The position numbers and the translations under genes are program-made. 64,000 nt of DNA from an uncultured Clostridia bacterium (GTDB taxonomy: Bacteria; Bacillota; Clostridia; Oscillospirales; CAG-272), in assembly GCA_947631245.1 (NCBI GenBank), contig CANRKP010000004.1, positions 6,147 through 70,146 of the forward strand. The letters run 5' to 3'. Below the pieces are notes generated by a model that searched no databases, was not told the origin of the DNA, and worked only from the letters and a program-made list of their open reading frames with translations. This document shows, piece by piece, positions 3,542 to 25,196 of this stretch. Position 1 is the first letter of the stretch. Every line of letters begins with the position of its first letter.

Positions 3542-4804
3542 ATGTATTATTTTAAAAATATAAGGCTTTATACGGGCGAGGAATCGTTTGAAAACGGCGC
3601 CGTTTTGACTGACGGCAGTCTCATCGTTTACGCGGGAGACGAAAAAGGCTGTCCCGCGCATGAAGGCGCCGAGGTAATAGACGGTCGAGGCGGCATATGT
3701 ATGCCGGGGCTCGTCTCGGCGCATTCGCACGCGCCGATGGTGCTCCTTCGCGGAGAGGGCGCGGACCTGCCGCTTATGGAATGGCTCGGCTGCGTTCAGA
3801 AAATGGAGGAAAACTTCACGTCCGAGACGATATATACGGGCACCGCTTTGGCGATCGCGGAGATGATAAAAGGCGGCGTCACCGCGTTTGCGGACATGTA
3901 TTTCGAGTGCCGCGACATGATACGCGCCGTGCTTGACACCGGCATCCGCGCCTCGATCTCGCGCGGCTCGACGTCGCTGGAAGGAATAGCCTCGCACGAG
4001 GCGCTCTTCCGTGAATTTGACGGGGCGGACGGGCGCGTCCGAGTGCTCGTCGGGCTGCACGGGGAATACACCTCCGACGAGAAAACTGCGCGCGCCGCGG
4101 CGGAGCTTGCGGCAAAGCTCGGGACGGGCGTTCACGTCCACATGTCGGAGAGCATATCGGAGGTGGAGGGCTGCGTCTCGCGCCACGGCGTGACGCCTCC
4201 CGAATATTTCGAGCGGATAGGGCTCTTCGACGTGCCCGTCACGGCGGCGCACTGCGTGCATCTTACAAACGAAGATATTGACATCATCGCGCGTCACGGT
4301 GTCATTCCCGTGCACTGTCCGGCGAGCAATATGTACCTTGCGAGTGGAGCTGCGCCCGTGAATGAGCTTCTTTCGCGCGGAATACCCGTTGCGCTCGGGA
4401 CGGACGGCGCGGCGAGCAACAACACGCTCGATATGTTCCGTGAGATGAGGCTCGCGGCGCTGCTTTCGAAGGTGAAAACAATGCGGGCGGACGCGCTTCC
4501 GGCAAGAACCGCGGTCGAAATGGCGACGAAAAACGCTGCCAAAGCCGCGGGATTTCCCGAGGTCGGGATCCTTGCCGCGGGCAGACCTGCGGATTTGATC
4601 CTTCTTGACGGGGAAGCGCTGCATCTCAACGCATGCGATATCCCGACGGCGGTCGTTTATTCCGCCTCGGGCGCCGACGTTAAGCTCACGATGGTGGACG
4701 GACGCGCGCTCTTCCGTGACGGCGAGTACACGACGGTTGACATTGAGCGCCTCCGCTATGAGGGGAGACGGGCGTCGGCGCATTTGCGGGGAAGTCAAAA
4801 TTAA
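3542..4804 (+). CDS. Amidohydrolase, MTA/SAH deaminase (MtaD/DadD-like)
   Basis: HSH, HMSE, AHCVH, LGTDGAASNN motifs; 3 bp after ahcY. Confidence 0.8.
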   Translation: MYYFKNIRLYTGEESFENGAVLTDGSLIVYAGDEKGCPAHEGAEVIDGRGGICMPGLVSAHSHAPMVLLRGEGADLPLMEWLGCVQKMEENFTSETIYTGTALAIAEMIKGGVTAFADMYFECRDMIRAVLDTGIRASISRGSTSLEGIASHEALFREFDGADGRVRVLVGLHGEYTSDEKTARAAAELAAKLGTGVHVHMSESISEVEGCVSRHGVTPPEYFERIGLFDVPVTAAHCVHLTNEDIDIIARHGVIPVHCPASNMYLASGAAPVNELLSRGIPVALGTDGAASNNTLDMFREMRLAALLSKVKTMRADALPARTAVEMATKNAAKAAGFPEVGILAAGRPADLILLDGEALHLNACDIPTAVVYSASGADVKLTMVDGRALFRDGEYTTVDIERLRYEGRRASAHLRGSQN

Positions 4805-20341: not shown

Positions 20342-20432
20342 GCGGTCGTGACGAAAAAAATAAAAGTTTACCAAGGATATGTAATTATGAACTTTTTGTG
20401 AACGAAACTGTGGGAGCCTCGCGGCGCGCCGT

Positions 20433-20786
20433 TCATGTTGCGCTGCTCTGTTCGCTCATCGTTTTACCGAGCGCCAACTTTATTTTTTTGACGGTCTCCG
20501 CAAGCGCGCGACCCACAGCAGAACGGCTCTCGGAAATTTCAAGCTCCCGTCCCCTCGAGATCATTCCGCCCTTTATGACCCACGCCGTAATATTTACGGA
20601 TGGGTCGCTGTACGTCGCCTTGATGTAGCCGACGTCGCCGAGCGGGACGCCCGTCTTCTCCCAGACGCTCTCGCCCGACATCATGAATTTTTCTCTGTAG
20701 CCCTCTTTGTGAAGTATATCGCGAATTATGCCCCTTGCGGCATAATATCCGCAACCGAATGAAAACCTGTAAGCAGAGCGAGACAT
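20433..20786 (-). CDS. Hypothetical protein (117 aa)
   Basis: Protein-like composition; start overlaps (TAATG) the stop of an 11-codon ORF that has an AAAGGA RBS. Confidence 0.55.
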   Translation of the reverse strand: MSRSAYRFSFGCGYYAARGIIRDILHKEGYREKFMMSGESVWEKTGVPLGDVGYIKATYSDPSVNITAWVIKGGMISRGRELEISESRSAVGRALAETVKKIKLALGKTMSEQSSAT

Positions 20787-20949
20787 TACTGTAATACCCT
20801 GTATGATATAGCTGCCGCCATATATCCTTTCTTAAGATTTACGCTCGCCTCGGTTCGGTACACGGAAAAAGTTGAGGGAGCGGCAAGACTGAGACTTTTT
20901 TCGTGCGCGGCGCGCCCGCGCCGCCGTCCGTCAGCGAACCGACGATTTT

Positions 20950-21303
20950 TCAATCATTAGCGACCCGTTTTTCGCGCACCGACCGTGTGATCTCTTCTCT
21001 CAGCCCCTTTGTCGACCGAAACGAAGGCTTAAAGCTTTCCGGAATGAGATGATCCTCCATCGTTTTTGGATTGCGCCCAATTTTACTGCTGATCGTCCGA
21101 AGCTCAAATACGCCGAAGTTTTTGATGCAGACGGCATGTCCATGGTTCCACGTTTCTTTCAGGATATCAAGAAATGCCAAAAGAATGGCGTCCGCGTCTT
21201 ACTCGTTGACGTCGAGCCTGTCCGCCAGCATCTCTGCGTATTCCTTTCGGTACAGTTCTGCCGCTGTTTCGCTATAACGCGCCTCCCATTGCCCGCATTT
21301 CAT
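20950..21303 (-). pseudogene. HU/IHF family DNA-binding protein interrupted by in-frame TAA
   Basis: LYRKEYAEMLADRLDVNE*DADAILLAFLD...NFGVFEL...GRNPKT...IP...PSFR; stop at 21199-21201 splits one frame. Confidence 0.8.
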
Positions 21304-21385
21304 CTTTTCGGCACAATAAAGGCTTCTACCGGTAAGACCGAATAAAAAAGCTAAAAAACGGGCATCCTGTATATGTCTCCACACG

Positions 21386-21410
21386 GTCGCAGAGTTCTTT
21401 ACTCTGCGTC
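21386..21410 (-). repeat. Left inverted repeat / recombinase core site
   Basis: gtcgcagagttctttactctgcgtc; internal dyad cgcagagt..actctgcg with asymmetric spacer. Confidence 0.9.
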
Positions 21411-21477
21411 AGCGCCGGCTCAAACGCAGCCGATTTCCTTATGCCGCGGGTAAATGCCGCCTCCTTTTCCCCTTTCG

Positions 21478-21497
21478 TGACTGAAAAGTCTGACTGC
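21478..21497 (+). repeat. Two TGACTG repeats (13-bp period), putative arm-type integrase sites
   Basis: tgactg at 21478 and tgactgc at 21491. Confidence 0.55.
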
Positions 21498-21503
21498 TGT
21501 TGT

Positions 21504-22619
21504 TCACAGAACCGCGACAGCCAGCTTGTCCATATTTTCGCGCTTCAGCTCCATGGAGGAATGGACGTATCTGTTGAGCGTTATAGACGTGTCCGCATGA
21601 CCGAGTATCTCGCTGAGACTCTTCAGCTCAAATCCCGCTTCCACACAGCGCGTAGCGAACGTGTGGCGGATCGTGTGAAAATGGACTCCCTCAAGTCCGC
21701 ACTCCTCAGTATATTTCGTAAACCGCTTCTGCACTTGACGCGGCTCCATGAACCGCTCAGTGCCCGTCAAAAGAAACGCGGCCGGACTGTGCGGATCATA
21801 CAGTCCGCAGAGCCTGACCGCGCTCTCCGCAAGAGGGATCGTCCTGACCGATGTGCTGCTCTTGGGGCTGCCGATCGTTACCTTTGTTTTTCTGTTCCCC
21901 GTGTGCTCATAATCATGCAGCCTCTGCATCGTCGCGTCTATGTGTATCGTACTGTCCGAAAGCGAGATATTCTCCCATTTCAGGGCGCAGAGCTCTCCGA
22001 GCCGAAGGCCTGTAAGCAGCGCTAGAATGACGCCGAGCTTGCATTCGTCCATGTCAGTCAGAAGATAGGACACAAAGCGCCGCTGCTCGTCAAGGCTGAG
22101 GACGCGGGCCTCCCTTTTCTGCTCCCTCGGGTATGATATCTCAACGGCGGGGAACGTACCGGGAGACTGCGCCTCGGCGTATTTCAAGACCGCGCGCAGC
22201 ACCGTGAGGATATCCCGAACTGTCTTGGCTGAAAGCCCCTCGGACAGAAGCTCCTGCTTGAAACGCTCCGCAAGCTGCGTTGTGATTCCCTGCGGAAAGC
22301 ACCCGCCGAGCTTGGGCATTATGTGATTTTTTAGGATAGTGTCGTATTTTATATATGTGGATTCTTTCACTTTCCCTTTTTCGAGGCGCAGCCACTCCCC
22401 GCAGAAAAAGGAAAGCCTGCGGCGGCGGTTTCCCGCGGGCACAGGCGCCCCCGCCAAAAGCGCCGCTTTGCACAGCGTGACCTTTTCTTTCGCCTCACTG
22501 TAGGTTTTGCCGTAGCAGAACCCGTACCTGATCTTGCCGGAAAGCTCGTAGCATTTGACATACCTCGCCTCCCAGCGTCCGTCCTTGCGTTTAAAAATGT
22601 TTTCTCCTTTTTTCGGCAT
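21504..22619 (-). CDS. Tyrosine recombinase/integrase with N-terminal arm-binding domain
   Basis: N-term IFKRKDGRWEARY; catalytic R (GLRLGE), K (PKS), HxxR (HTIR), LGH, Y (NRYVH) all present; GGGAG RBS. Confidence 0.95.
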   Translation of the reverse strand: MPKKGENIFKRKDGRWEARYVKCYELSGKIRYGFCYGKTYSEAKEKVTLCKAALLAGAPVPAGNRRRRLSFFCGEWLRLEKGKVKESTYIKYDTILKNHIMPKLGGCFPQGITTQLAERFKQELLSEGLSAKTVRDILTVLRAVLKYAEAQSPGTFPAVEISYPREQKREARVLSLDEQRRFVSYLLTDMDECKLGVILALLTGLRLGELCALKWENISLSDSTIHIDATMQRLHDYEHTGNRKTKVTIGSPKSSTSVRTIPLAESAVRLCGLYDPHSPAAFLLTGTERFMEPRQVQKRFTKYTEECGLEGVHFHTIRHTFATRCVEAGFELKSLSEILGHADTSITLNRYVHSSMELKRENMDKLAVAVL

Positions 22620-22656
22620 TGTTTTTTCTCCCTGTGTCGGAAACTGTCGTATTTCA

Positions 22657-22665
22657 AGTATATCA
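22657..22665 (-). promoter_or_regulatory. Extended -10 (TGATATACT) candidate promoter for the integrase
   Basis: Minus strand TG-A-TATACT about 40 bp upstream of ATG, poor -35. Confidence 0.5.
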
Positions 22666-22685
22666 GAACTTTGGTCCGCGTGCTT

Positions 22686-22716
22686 TGACTGCTTTTCTGA
22701 CTGCGATACAGACTGC
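22686..22716 (+). repeat. Three GACTGC repeats (12-bp period), putative arm-type integrase sites
   Basis: tgactgc 22686, tgactgc 22698, agactgc 22710. Confidence 0.7.
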
Positions 22717-22816
22717 CAAAAGCCGATTTTGGGCGGATAAACTGGCTTTTTGTATTTTTAGCCGCCGCCCTTGCGGTATTTTTCGAATGATTTTTTTGTT
22801 TTTTCGCCGCAAGCTA

Positions 22817-22845
22817 TTGAAAATCCACGCTGGGCGTGCTATACT
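22817..22845 (+). promoter_or_regulatory. Outward-facing sigma-A promoter inside the invertible cassette
   Basis: TTGAAA-17-TATACT with extended -10 TG at 22837-22838. Confidence 0.8.
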
Positions 22846-22873
22846 ATATATGTTTCGACAACGATAAAATGCG

Positions 22874-22898
22874 GACGCAGAGTAAAGAACTCTGCGAC
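22874..22898 (+). repeat. Right inverted repeat / recombinase core site
   Basis: gacgcagagtaaagaactctgcgac. Confidence 0.9.
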
Positions 22899-22909
22899 TA
22901 TGCGGACAT

Positions 22910-22946
22910 AAAAAGCGCGCTCGCGTGAAAAACGAGCGCGCTTTTT
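22910..22946. terminator. Bidirectional intrinsic terminator
   Basis: aaaaagcgcgctcg-N9-cgagcgcgcttttt. Confidence 0.88.
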
Positions 22947-22952
22947 ATGTTG

Positions 22953-22986
22953 AACGGCGGGAGCGTCATGCTCCCGCCGTTTTATT
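22953..22986 (+). terminator. Second hairpin terminator
   Basis: aacggcgggagc-N5-gctcccgccgtt followed by T-rich tail. Confidence 0.7.
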
Positions 22987-24910
22987 CTCTTCTGATAAAG
23001 CCGTCGTCGCCGCGCTCGAAGTAAGCTCCGAACGGCGCGCCGAGCAGTCCCTTTATTTCGGGGTCGTAGTTGCATACGGTGTTGAGGTCGTAGGTGTCGA
23101 GCACGTCGTCTACGGGGTTCGGGTCGTCGCCGCCCGCGTATTCGTCGTACTCATCGAGCGTCATGAACCGCCATCCGCTGTCCCATCCCTTGTCCGCGGG
23201 AGCAGGGCGCTCGCGGAAGCAGACCTCGACGGGGTGCCCGTCGAACATTATGCTGTCCGTCGCAAGGCAGCCGCGCGGTCCTCTGAGCCCGGGAAGCAGG
23301 TCCCGCATCTCGTCCTCGGGCAAAAACAGCTCGTCTTCTTCGACGTCGCCGGCGCCCTCTCCCGCGAGCCATTCGTCAAAGCGCGCGTCGAGAACTGCCG
23401 CCATATCGGCGTAATATTGCTCGCTCCACGGGATAAAAAGGTACGCCTCGCCCGAAAATTCGCTGCTGCGGCACCGAGAAACGCCGAACACGCGCTCCGC
23501 GTACATCGCAAGGTCGCTCATATAAGAATGGGAAGCATCCCCGCTCATGTAGTACCAGTGGGTGAAATCGACGCCGTCGCAATTAAAGCAGGGGAGCGTG
23601 AGCTCTCCGTCCATGTATCTGTCGGCTCTGAGAAAGAAGCGCAGATCCGTGGCTGCGCGTCCGCGCCTCACGGATTCCGAAAGATAACCGTACCTGTCGA
23701 GGAACACATCGCTCATGAGGTCGCGCTCCATGCACCAGCGCAGGTAGACCGCCATGTGGTTGTATGCGGAGAGCGGATTTAACGGCAGCTTTTTCTCCTC
23801 GATTTTCTTTATGTGAAACTCCGCCGTGTCGACCGTTATCCCGTATTCGATCGGACGGCCGAGGCTGTCTATGACGGATGGGCGATGCTCGTCGACGACG
23901 GCGAGCATATCGTCAGAGAAGCAGTCGAGCAGAGCGTCCGCGTCCGTTTTGAGCTTGTAGTCAATCTCCTCGGGGTAGAGCGGGACGAGCTGGAAGAAGC
24001 TGACCCCGTCGCCGGAGGGCAGGTCGCAGATGTCGGCGTCGCGGCAGAACTTGCCGGGGGTCACGAGTATCGCACCGTTGAACCTGACGTCCTCGGTATC
24101 GGGACCGCGGGACGTGACGACGGTGCAGCCCCAGTCGAGCCGCGCGTCAGACGAGGCAGCCCTGCGGGCGATGCCGCGGAGCATGTGGAGCGCCCACGGC
24201 GGAACGACGTCTCCGTCGTTCTGTGCCGAGAAATCGGCACATTCGGGCGGCAGGCAGAGGAGCAGTTCGATGCGGCACAAGCGGTCGGGCTCAAATTCGT
24301 CGTCCTCGGTATTTTTCTTCATTACGTGCGCGCCCGCGCCGAGCGTTGCGAGCGTCACCCAGCCGTAATCACCCTTCGGGGGTATGACGAGGACGTCTAT
24401 GTCCACGAATTCCGGCAGCGGGTCGTGAATGACGCGCGCCGCCTCGCCGAAATAATCCTCTATATGCGCGCGCACGGCGTCGGCGTCGCGTGAGTCGTAA
24501 AGCTCGAGGGAGTCGAGGCGCGCCTTCTCGCGCTCGCGGCATTCCTCAATATAAGGAATAAGGTCGACGTCGCCGGGGTCGAGCCTCTGCGCGTGCTCAA
24601 AAAACGAAACGGCGTCCGAGAAAACGCCGAGGTTGAAAAGAGTGAAGCCGACGAGCTTGTTCCACGCCGCGTCGGCGCAGCCGTCCTCCACGAACGGCGT
24701 GAGGATGGAAAACGCGTGCTTGAGCATGTCTCTGTCGGGAGACGAAGCGTCCGCCGAGACGGCGAGCATTGCGTATGCTCGTGCGAGCAAAAGGGAAAGA
24801 CGGTAGTCGCGGTCGCCGTCCGGCAGCGCCTCAATTACGCCGATGACTATGCGGTGTTCGCCGTTCTTTGCCCATTCTTCGAGCTGTTCGTAAAAACCGC
24901 GTCCGTTCAT
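22982..24910 (-). CDS. Multidomain TPR + SUFU-like + DUF2185-like protein (immunity-type domains)
   Basis: N-term TPR-like helices; IDVLVIPP..TLATLG..RIELLLCLP..FFQLVPLYPEE; C-term GCLATD..RERP..DSGWRF..YDLNTVCNYDP; GAGG RBS before 24910. Confidence 0.75.
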   Translation of the reverse strand: MNGRGFYEQLEEWAKNGEHRIVIGVIEALPDGDRDYRLSLLLARAYAMLAVSADASSPDRDMLKHAFSILTPFVEDGCADAAWNKLVGFTLFNLGVFSDAVSFFEHAQRLDPGDVDLIPYIEECREREKARLDSLELYDSRDADAVRAHIEDYFGEAARVIHDPLPEFVDIDVLVIPPKGDYGWVTLATLGAGAHVMKKNTEDDEFEPDRLCRIELLLCLPPECADFSAQNDGDVVPPWALHMLRGIARRAASSDARLDWGCTVVTSRGPDTEDVRFNGAILVTPGKFCRDADICDLPSGDGVSFFQLVPLYPEEIDYKLKTDADALLDCFSDDMLAVVDEHRPSVIDSLGRPIEYGITVDTAEFHIKKIEEKKLPLNPLSAYNHMAVYLRWCMERDLMSDVFLDRYGYLSESVRRGRAATDLRFFLRADRYMDGELTLPCFNCDGVDFTHWYYMSGDASHSYMSDLAMYAERVFGVSRCRSSEFSGEAYLFIPWSEQYYADMAAVLDARFDEWLAGEGAGDVEEDELFLPEDEMRDLLPGLRGPRGCLATDSIMFDGHPVEVCFRERPAPADKGWDSGWRFMTLDEYDEYAGGDDPNPVDDVLDTYDLNTVCNYDPEIKGLLGAPFGAYFERGDDGFIRRE

Positions 24911-25196
24911 GTCCCTCACCTCTCTTTTTTTCATCGTTTCAAAAGTATATCACAACCGCAATATGAAGTCAATCATGCACATTGCCGAAAAAAGAATGTT
25001 TTTCCTGCTCTGACCTCTCTCTTCTCGGGAAATAGCGTGCGCTCGCCGGGTATTTGCGCCTCTCGCCCGCAACGCGCAGGAAAACAGCGTATGCGCCCGC
25101 ACACAGCGACCGCCTCCGCGCACGCCCGAGGCTTATACTGTTCTATGTGACGGGGACCGTGCGGTCCTTGCAGAACATTAAAATGGGGGTGGTAGA

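Follow-up and report, generated by a model that had tools for sequence, protein, structure and literature searches.

A probable self-contained invertible promoter cassette with its own tyrosine integrase in an uncultured Clostridia bacterium, and its relatives in gut Clostridia

In a 64,000-nucleotide (nt) stretch of DNA from an uncultured Clostridia bacterium of the order Oscillospirales (GenBank assembly GCA_947631245.1, contig CANRKP010000004.1, positions 6,147 to 70,146 of the forward strand; hereafter the window), a gene for a tyrosine integrase is enclosed by two short inverted repeats, together with a predicted promoter that points outwards through one of them. We consider it highly probable that this segment, 21386-22898, is a self-contained invertible promoter cassette which is flipped by the integrase it encodes. 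The interpretation is supported at the level of the family, in which the layout recurs and one relative occurs in both orientations, and the copy in the window is most likely a switch that turns genes on and off. That this particular copy still flips and that its promoter is active is inferred.

Results

An integrase gene and an outward promoter between inverted core sites

The cassette and the terminators next to it consist of the following parts; G002 is the genome of a sister species:

21386..21410, no strand: left core site on the integrase 3' side ("IR3"), exact reverse complement of the right site; extended 21378-21413
21478..21496, minus strand: two CAGTCA motifs 13 nt apart, directly after the integrase stop codon; candidate arm-type sites
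21504..22619, minus strand: intact tyrosine integrase gene, 371 amino acids (aa), the sole long open reading frame (ORF) between the repeats; assigned by Pfam
22686..22703, minus strand: pair of CAGTCA motifs (12 nt apart) that precedes the integrase start by ~70-85 nt; candidate arm-type sites
22817..22845, plus strand: outward predicted promoter P, TTGAAA-17-TATACT with TG, 10/12 matches
22874..22898, no strand: right, promoter-proximal core site ("IR5"), GACGCAGAGT-AAAGA-ACTCTGCGAC; extended 22871-22906
22906..22950, plus strand: terminator T1, a perfect hairpin of 18 bp with a T-run behind it
22952..22982, plus strand: terminator T2, native to the locus; its hairpin is interrupted by a 2.5-kb insertion and uninterrupted in G002

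The 25-nt repeat is exact, 21386-21410 (GTCGCAGAGTTCTTTACTCTGCGTC) being the reverse complement of 22874-22898, and in a repeat search the inverted pair extends to 36 nt at 89%. Both copies have the form of a dyad, CGCAGAGT-N5-ACTCTGCG, a pattern found at these two places only in the window, where 0.02 matches would be expected by chance and where two matches were reached in 0 of 100 shuffles. Since the centre of the dyad is asymmetric and reads TCTTT at one copy and AAAGA at the other, the two core sites can be called inverted and not direct. The right site can equally be read as 9-bp arms that flank a 7-bp asymmetric centre.

The protein encoded between the sites comprises an N-terminal domain of ~65 aa, a SAM-like core-binding domain (Phage_int_SAM_3, E 6e-8) and a catalytic domain (Phage_integrase, PF00589, E 1.6e-26), in that order; Pfam gave tyrosine-integrase domains only and no serine catalytic domain of the resolvase type. 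In an alignment of 49 sequences of integrase homologues the residues R206, K253, H315, R318, H341 and Y351 are invariant, with K253 presumably representing the catalytic lysine, as judged from the pattern familiar for such enzymes. Among the 6 promoter-like sites recognised in 3 kb (shuffle mean 1.9), P ranks first; 28 nt separate the end of its -10 hexamer from the right core site, and it is conserved in G002. T1 moves with the cassette, as it is also found at the G002 cassette and at a solo unit on contig C3 of the genome from which the window derives (G000:C3, see below). Because P runs into T1, and because T1 belongs to the cassette, the sequenced orientation can be regarded as the "parked" or OFF state.

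The original prediction for this locus had described exact inverted repeats that are each a dyad with an asymmetric centre, an integrase with all catalytic residues between them, a TTGAAA-17-TATACT (+TG) promoter directed through the right repeat and two terminators directly outside that repeat. Every sequence feature that it described is real: the repeats are confirmed by sequence and shuffles, the integrase is borne out by the PF00589 match together with the six invariant residues, the promoter is present in the sequence with its 10/12 consensus match, and the terminators are the two hairpins listed above. Its description of the locus as caught in the OFF state is likewise a fair one, given that the promoter faces a cassette-borne terminator.

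The layout recurs in a family of gut Clostridia integrases

A scan of species-representative genomes returned at least 586 relatives of the integrase, of which 80 loci were kept for a census, and 70 of these 80 had enough flank for the repeats to be assessed (at least 400 nt upstream and at least 250 nt downstream). With an inverted pair being counted if it scored at least 16 and lay between -400 and -50 of the integrase start on one side and between 0 and +250 after the stop on the other, an inverted dyad pair was present in 55 of the 70 homologous loci, compared with 0/70 in shuffled sequences (20 shuffles each) and 3/70 for direct repeats. Four homologues that had been looked at before the census (G002, G040, G019 and G013, with 94, 55, 46 and 37% identity) all carry inverted dyads at matching distances; a fifth such locus begins at a contig end. 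The 55 repeat-bearing loci, the window and these four loci form the set of 60 to which the following counts refer.

The consensus site of the family is TTTCGCAGAGT-N5-ACTCTGCGAAA, which again can be read as 9-bp arms and a 7-bp centre. The centres are highly individual, with 53 distinct ones in the 60 loci and none of them palindromic, and within a locus the centre is identical in both copies in at least 47/60 cases by automatic call, a lower bound since the dyad-calling script miscalls the other 13 loci. Such identity is to be expected because strand exchange between the copies requires a match. Some loci (L053, L059 and L078) carry tandem double core sites on both sides, so that their inverted repeats measure 54-73 nt.

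In 49 loci a sigma-70-like promoter that points outwards is found no more than 130 nt inward of the 5' repeat; 38 of these promoters have at least 10/12 matches, several even 12/12, and their -10 hexamers are mostly separated from the repeat by 23-37 nt. The control on the inward, opposite strand gave a promoter in 18/60 loci, with three reaching 10/12, and an outward promoter at the 3' repeat was seen in only 2/60. Terminators show a similar one-sidedness, being located within 120 nt outside the promoter-side repeat in 23/60 loci versus 5/60 on the other side. The inspection of homologues for flanking dyad repeats and an outward promoter, which had been proposed as a check of the original prediction, has hence been carried out and came down in its favour.

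The short motifs at the two ends of the integrase gene are also a family trait. On the sense strand, C[AC]GTCA occurs upstream of the integrase start in 47/60 loci, after the stop codon in 41/60 and at both places in 38/60, with the antisense control giving 4/60, 2/60 and 0/60, respectively. The paired CAGTCA motifs may represent arm-type sites that are bound by the N-terminal 65 residues of the integrase. These residues matched no Pfam model and no solved chain, and a match to AP2 (E 0.014) was obtained in the N-terminal domain of one integrase homologue only.

Isolates with members of the family include Butyricicoccus pullicaecorum DSM 23266, Flintibacter porci P01025, Eubacterium sp. OM08-24 and Thomasclavelia saccharogumia DSM 17460. 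A phage collection gave only unannotated "Bacteriophage sp." fecal contigs, with identities of 44% or less.

A relative occurs in both orientations

The most direct evidence for inversion comes from a family member of Butyricicoccus pullicaecorum DSM 23266 (L112), the integrase of which is 40% identical to that of the window. Its type of site was found at 120 loci in human-gut metagenome contigs, and each locus was classified by comparing the DNA on each side of every site with the four corresponding pieces of L112. By this means 79 + 74 junctions were assigned to the reference orientation and 8 + 6 to the flipped one; counted as loci, 100 show the reference orientation only, three the reference orientation plus an unclassified junction, 11 the flipped orientation only, and six are unclassified. 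Three contigs (L144, L150 and L166) contain both flipped junctions, and in these the whole 1411-bp segment is inverted exactly between the 25-bp repeats, with the inverted segment being 99.7-100% and the collinear flanks 99.4-100% identical to L112. Assemblers normally use word sizes longer than 25 bp, and since the repeat is thus shorter than the usual words, we take the flipped contigs to be real molecules and regard an assembly artefact as their source as unlikely. The original prediction had named the search for flipped forms in relatives as a check, and such forms are what this cassette type provides.

It is in line with this picture that some contigs end inside a repeat, namely at the start of L075 and L011 and at the end of L123, the latter being an isolate assembly (Thomasclavelia saccharogumia DSM 17460), and that a core site in the sister species lies beside a contig break (G002:C10:36-56). 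Contig breaks at core sites are what mixed orientations in a sample would produce.

Proposed mechanism and genes on the ON side

The inserted segment that contains the cassette has the following features on the side opposite to T1, its own extent being given first:

20421..22956, no strand: 2.5-kb segment without counterpart at the orthologous G002 locus, flanked by an imperfect 11-nt direct repeat (GTGGGAGCCTC / GCGGGAGCGTC)
20433..20786, minus strand: 117-aa ORF without family assignment, open, second gene on the ON side; paralogue of G000:C2:34707-35084 (82% at the nt level)
20950..21303, minus strand: HU/IHF-like gene, first gene on the ON side; Bac_DNA_binding in Pfam (E 5e-14), in-frame TAA at 21199-21201
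21293..21385, minus strand: leader "X", adjoining the left site on its outer side and also conserved at the G002 cassette

We propose that the integrase would recombine the two inverted core sites, with 9-bp arms and a 7-bp asymmetric overlap, and would thereby flip the 1.5-kb segment that carries both its own gene and the predicted strong outward promoter P; inversion is the expected outcome because the asymmetric centres match between inverted sites. In the present orientation P would read through the right site into T1. After a flip, it would read through the other site and through X, which would then form the 5' part of the P transcript, into the HU/IHF-like gene and the 117-aa ORF on the minus strand, and the integrase transcript would in turn end at T1. 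The flipped junction should accordingly have the order promoter / site / CGTGTGGAGACATATAC, and the other junction the order integrase 3' end / site / T1. Owing to its private centre, a cassette would not recombine with others in the same genome.

The original prediction had named the HU-like gene and the 117-aa ORF as the genes switched on by inversion. A flip would indeed aim P leftwards at both of them, but the first of the two is a pseudogene with an in-frame TAA. The premature stop stands at the position of a Glu in an intact homologue, which is located at the same place beside the cassette of locus L057.

Mobility and alternative functions of the integrase

The window is part of contig C4 of a 2.08-Mb genome (G000), in which one full copy of the cassette is present. 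In the sister species G002 an integrase with 94% identity is found, at a different locus: the cassette is absent from the window locus in G002 and present elsewhere there. At the orthologous place in G002, window position 20420 is followed immediately by 22957, and the DNA from 20421 to 22956 is for this reason regarded as a 2.5-kb insertion; it contains the 117-aa ORF, the HU/IHF-like gene, X, the cassette and T1 and is located in the hairpin of the native T2. The G002 cassette and its flanks align to window positions 21293-22946 at 89%, and the homology therefore passes the left repeat by 93 nt (X) and the right repeat by 48 nt (T1). The cassette travels, together with T1 and X, as part of inserted, mobile DNA.

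It could be imagined that the integrase mainly integrates and excises a small island, of 2.5 kb here and ~10 kb in G002, and that the inverted sites are incidental to it or have a different role. The location of the cassette in inserted DNA at different loci of the two genomes would fit such a role, as would the imperfect 11-nt direct repeat at the insertion ends and the fact that the closest solved structure is the integrase of the conjugative transposon Tn1549. However, the 11-nt repeat is unlike the core sites, the island boundaries do not lie at core sites, and no directly repeated attachment sites were found, the insertion ends carrying only that unrelated repeat. The inverted pair is moreover kept in the 55 of 70 census loci irrespective of the neighbouring genes, and the natural polymorphism of the L112 type is an inversion and not an excision. 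We thus regard an island enzyme as unlikely. The possibility that a third core site in direct orientation bounds an island was considered and rejected: apart from the inverted pair, G000 contains just one solo site, and the cassette-bearing contig of G002 contains no third site, with the other pattern matches of that genome sitting on other contigs. No tRNA was found near the cassette.

The extension of the homology beyond both repeats also bears on the idea of a minimal transposon that has the repeats as its terminal inverted repeats and the tyrosine recombinase as transposase, for which one could adduce that the repeat-flanked integrase recurs at unrelated loci in many genomes. A transposon of this kind should end at its repeats, whereas here the shared DNA passes them by 93 and 48 nt and the insertion is bounded at 20421 and 22956. 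The genome has a single full copy, the repeats have the dyad form and the asymmetric centre of a recombinase core site, and the L112-type segment inverts in place between unchanged flanks. Taken together, these points make a transposon very improbable.

The solo site of G000 belongs to a unit of 141 nt at G000:C3:55260-55406 (L002 1500-1650), which consists of a promoter, a site with the centre GAGAA and T1, and lacks an integrase. At the same locus, G002 carries a full cassette and ~10 kb, and the deletion junction in G000 shows microhomology only, a feature which also speaks against excision of an island by the integrase. The unit is probably best read as the promoter-side remnant left by a ~10-kb deletion with microhomology. 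The possibility that it is a preserved "flipped junction" was rejected, as all outer flanks share an extended repeat (CGTGTGGAGA.ATATA-like). In the 17 other genomes of the genus that were searched, there was no match to the promoter-site part and a single 37-nt match to the terminator part, in G007.

With a complete unit of promoter, hairpin and terminator being present in the window, in G002 and in solo form on G000:C3, and with a terminator following the promoter-side repeat in 23 of the 60 loci, one could speculate that a small RNA of ~100 nt (promoter, site as hairpin, T1) is the functional product and that the association with the integrase is secondary. Rfam searches of the cassette and of the solo unit gave chance-level matches only and thus no family, and the solo unit (86-91% at the nt level) is no better conserved than its flanks (93-96%). 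Outside the promoter-side repeat a terminator is undetected in 37/60 loci, and where single loci were sampled (L112, L120) it is a gene that the promoter points to. The -10 hexamer of L120 is only 3 nt away from the site, which would place the transcription start within the site. A small RNA as the actual product has in our opinion hardly any probability.

Points against a functional switch in the window

Several observations have to be set against the view that the segment is an invertible cassette, or that it still works as a switch in this genome. The flipped junction of the window cassette was not seen in Logan contigs of four runs from one sample, at a depth of only 3-7, too low to speak for or against inversion, and the contigs that bridge the repeats (the left one in two runs, the right one in three) have the reference orientation. 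No contig with the alternative junction is present in this genome, the 25-nt site of the window had 0 matches in metagenome contigs and 0 in viral contigs, and G000 and G002 share one orientation relative to T1 and X. As for the family, 15 of the 70 homologues have no detectable repeat pair, and a motif search in these 15 found single sites in L069 and L090 only. The flipped L112-type contigs could stem from strains that are fixed in the other orientation and do not on their own demonstrate ongoing switching within a clone. A promoter for the integrase itself was not recognised in a promoter scan of the locus. Finally, the first gene on the ON side is a pseudogene, and with it broken, the switch may control nothing useful here at present. 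The degenerate dyad pattern was found in viral contigs as five unrelated single sites.

The broken first gene on the ON side leads to the question whether the cassette is a decaying relic, that is, a family member which no longer regulates a useful gene at this place and is perhaps nearing loss. Such a reading overlaps with that of an invertible cassette and concerns its present-day function only. Beside the premature TAA where the L057 homologue has Glu, it can draw on the 141-nt remnant on C3, left after the loss of ~10 kb that are still present in G002, and on the absence of the cassette from the other 17 genomes of the genus that were searched. Against decay, the integrase is intact, keeps all catalytic residues and is 94% identical to its G002 orthologue; the two 25-nt sites are still identical, the sequences of the promoter and of T1 are intact, and the 117-aa ORF is open. 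We therefore see decay as a possibility to be taken seriously, albeit a distinctly weaker one than that of a cassette which can still invert.

Comparison with known systems

The cassette resembles the Hin/hix H segment of Salmonella in that a recombinase gene and an outward promoter lie inside an inverted segment with short inverted sites, and the comparison with Hin that was part of the original prediction is apt, with a tyrosine enzyme replacing a serine one. Whereas Hin is a small serine invertase, the window enzyme is a 371-aa tyrosine integrase with dyad core sites, and, unlike in the Hin system, nothing in the analysis of the window pointed to a Fis-type enhancer. PMC5903667 cites Hin to exemplify a recombinase encoded within the segment that is inverted.

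Promoter inversion between short inverted repeats by tyrosine recombinases is shared with fimS of E. coli (FimB/FimE) and with the tyrosine-type invertases of Bacteroides, switches which result in ON/OFF expression of surface structures. FimB, FimE and the Bacteroides invertases are small enzymes without an extra N-terminal domain, and they are encoded outside of the short segment, in contrast to the window integrase, which is encoded inside. The size of fimS is given as 296 bp without repeats in PMC5903667 and as 314 bp in an abstract. With regard to NF007370, the NCBIfam model for tyrosine-type DNA invertases, the window protein is not among the matches listed at E 0.01 or below, and the L112 protein scores 29 bits compared with a cut-off of 221; the NCBIfam matches of the window integrase are to generic Xer and integron models only, all of them far below the cut-offs. 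A further tyrosine recombinase, RecV of C. difficile, inverts regulatory segments (cwpV, flgB), according to PMC5903667. RecV is one enzyme that acts in trans on several short switches at other places of the genome, whereas each cassette described here has its own enzyme and its own centre.

In terms of structure, the closest solved protein is the Tn1549 Int (6en0; E 3e-17 with the single sequence, 2e-31 with a profile), and the window integrase shares with the integrases of Tn916 and Tn1549 the long protein with an additional N-terminal domain, which in Tn916 binds arm-type sites. Tn916 and Tn1549 use their enzymes for integration and excision with directly oriented ends, unlike the cassette, where the sites are inverted around the gene and the polymorphism is an inversion. 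The layout is also reminiscent of FLP/FRT of the yeast 2-micron plasmid, where the inverted repeats enclose a unique region with the gene of the tyrosine recombinase that acts on them. FLP/FRT is a device for copy-number control of a eukaryotic plasmid, in contrast to the cassette, which we read as a promoter switch, and the likeness is one of layout.

Sekulovic et al. (2018, PMC5903667) mention a putative fimbrial switch of Providencia stuartii in which a predicted 844-bp segment encloses a recombinase ORF, and this is the nearest precedent in print. It differs from the cassette family in being a single prediction, in a proteobacterium and beside fimbrial genes; the passage on it presents neither a family nor a census of promoters or an analysis of sites, and does not give the type of the recombinase. 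Leaving aside supplementary inverton tables, which may list such loci, no description of the Clostridia cassette family was found in full-text literature searches and in passages of PMC11892184, PMC5903667, PMC12823448, PMC9881135 and PMC11602134. The suggestion made with the original prediction that the invertase role of these integrases may be undescribed is, to the same extent, consistent with the literature searches.

We lean slightly towards the view that gut Clostridia (Oscillospiraceae, Lachnospiraceae and others) harbour a large unrecognised class of portable phase-variation modules of 1.2-1.5 kb. Such a module would consist of an integrase of the Tn916 kind, arm-type CAGTCA motifs in pairs at either end of its gene, an outward promoter close to consensus, a 7-bp crossover sequence peculiar to the module and, in many cases, a terminator of its own. 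The cargo with which the modules move between loci and species would face outwards and include genes for Tad pili, TasA/camelysin-like fibres, signal peptidases, sugar transferases of the capsule and regulators; one lineage has such a module next to erm(B).

For Bacteroides and a few pathogens, promoter inversion as a means of phase variation has been mapped well, but for the Clostridia that dominate the gut it has been mapped poorly. Standard inverton callers limit the distance between repeats to near 750 bp, and since this is well under 1.4 kb, the cassettes would escape them. If most of the at least 586 relatives invert themselves, many "orphan phage integrases" would be switches for surface structures and regulators, and a sequence rule would be at hand for finding them, namely an integrase with flanking TTCGCAGAG-N7-CTCTGCGAA dyads and an outward promoter. 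Inverton surveys should in that case admit segments of more than 1 kb. The cassettes could further serve synthetic biology as compact, mutually orthogonal and self-contained tyrosine-recombinase switches, and the expression of acquired neighbours, such as erm(B) by the L112-type cassette, may vary within a population.

Neighbouring genes and further observations

The genes adjacent to the cassettes always face outwards; among them are genes for pili, TasA/camelysin-like proteins, signal peptidases, sugar transferases and regulators. Counted as promoter side/other side, the outward neighbours belong to HTH_3 (7/1), TetR (2/4), signal peptidase S26 (1/4) and sugar transferase (1/1) families, and the occurrence of the same families on either side of different cassettes fits inversion. 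At L120, two paralogous camelysin/TasA-like genes face outwards on both sides of the cassette (2515-2785 and 3923-4193), and their 5' untranslated regions, ribosome-binding sites and first ~50 codons are identical. One promoter could therefore serve either gene, and the locus looks like a toggle between two alleles, as opposed to an ON/OFF switch.

The erm(B) module next to L112 (4530-5400; also at L113) faces outwards, is 100% identical to annotated plasmid copies and begins ~320 nt outside the integrase-3' repeat. With the L112-type cassette in its rarer, flipped orientation, the promoter would point to erm(B). In a plasmid collection, only the erm(B) part of L112 was matched and not the cassette.

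A second type of cassette is present in G002, where it is split across two contigs (G002:C120:1687-2852 and G002:C10:36-56); its integrase is 35% identical and it has a site of its own, CGCAGAATAATATATTCTGCG.

The 2.5-kb insertion (20410-20420 / 22957-22967) joins the halves of two different terminator hairpins, and its left boundary coincides with the start of the homology to the terminator of the C2 paralogue of the 117-aa ORF (G000:C2:34690-34720). Window positions 20800-20870 match the first 74 nt of the G002 contigs C8 and C125, and a place in C115, at ~80%, and seem to represent a multi-copy repeat in the sister genome. Convergent with the cassette, a 650-aa protein with SUFU, DUF7832 and Imm33 (immunity protein) domains is encoded at 22982-24934 on the minus strand.

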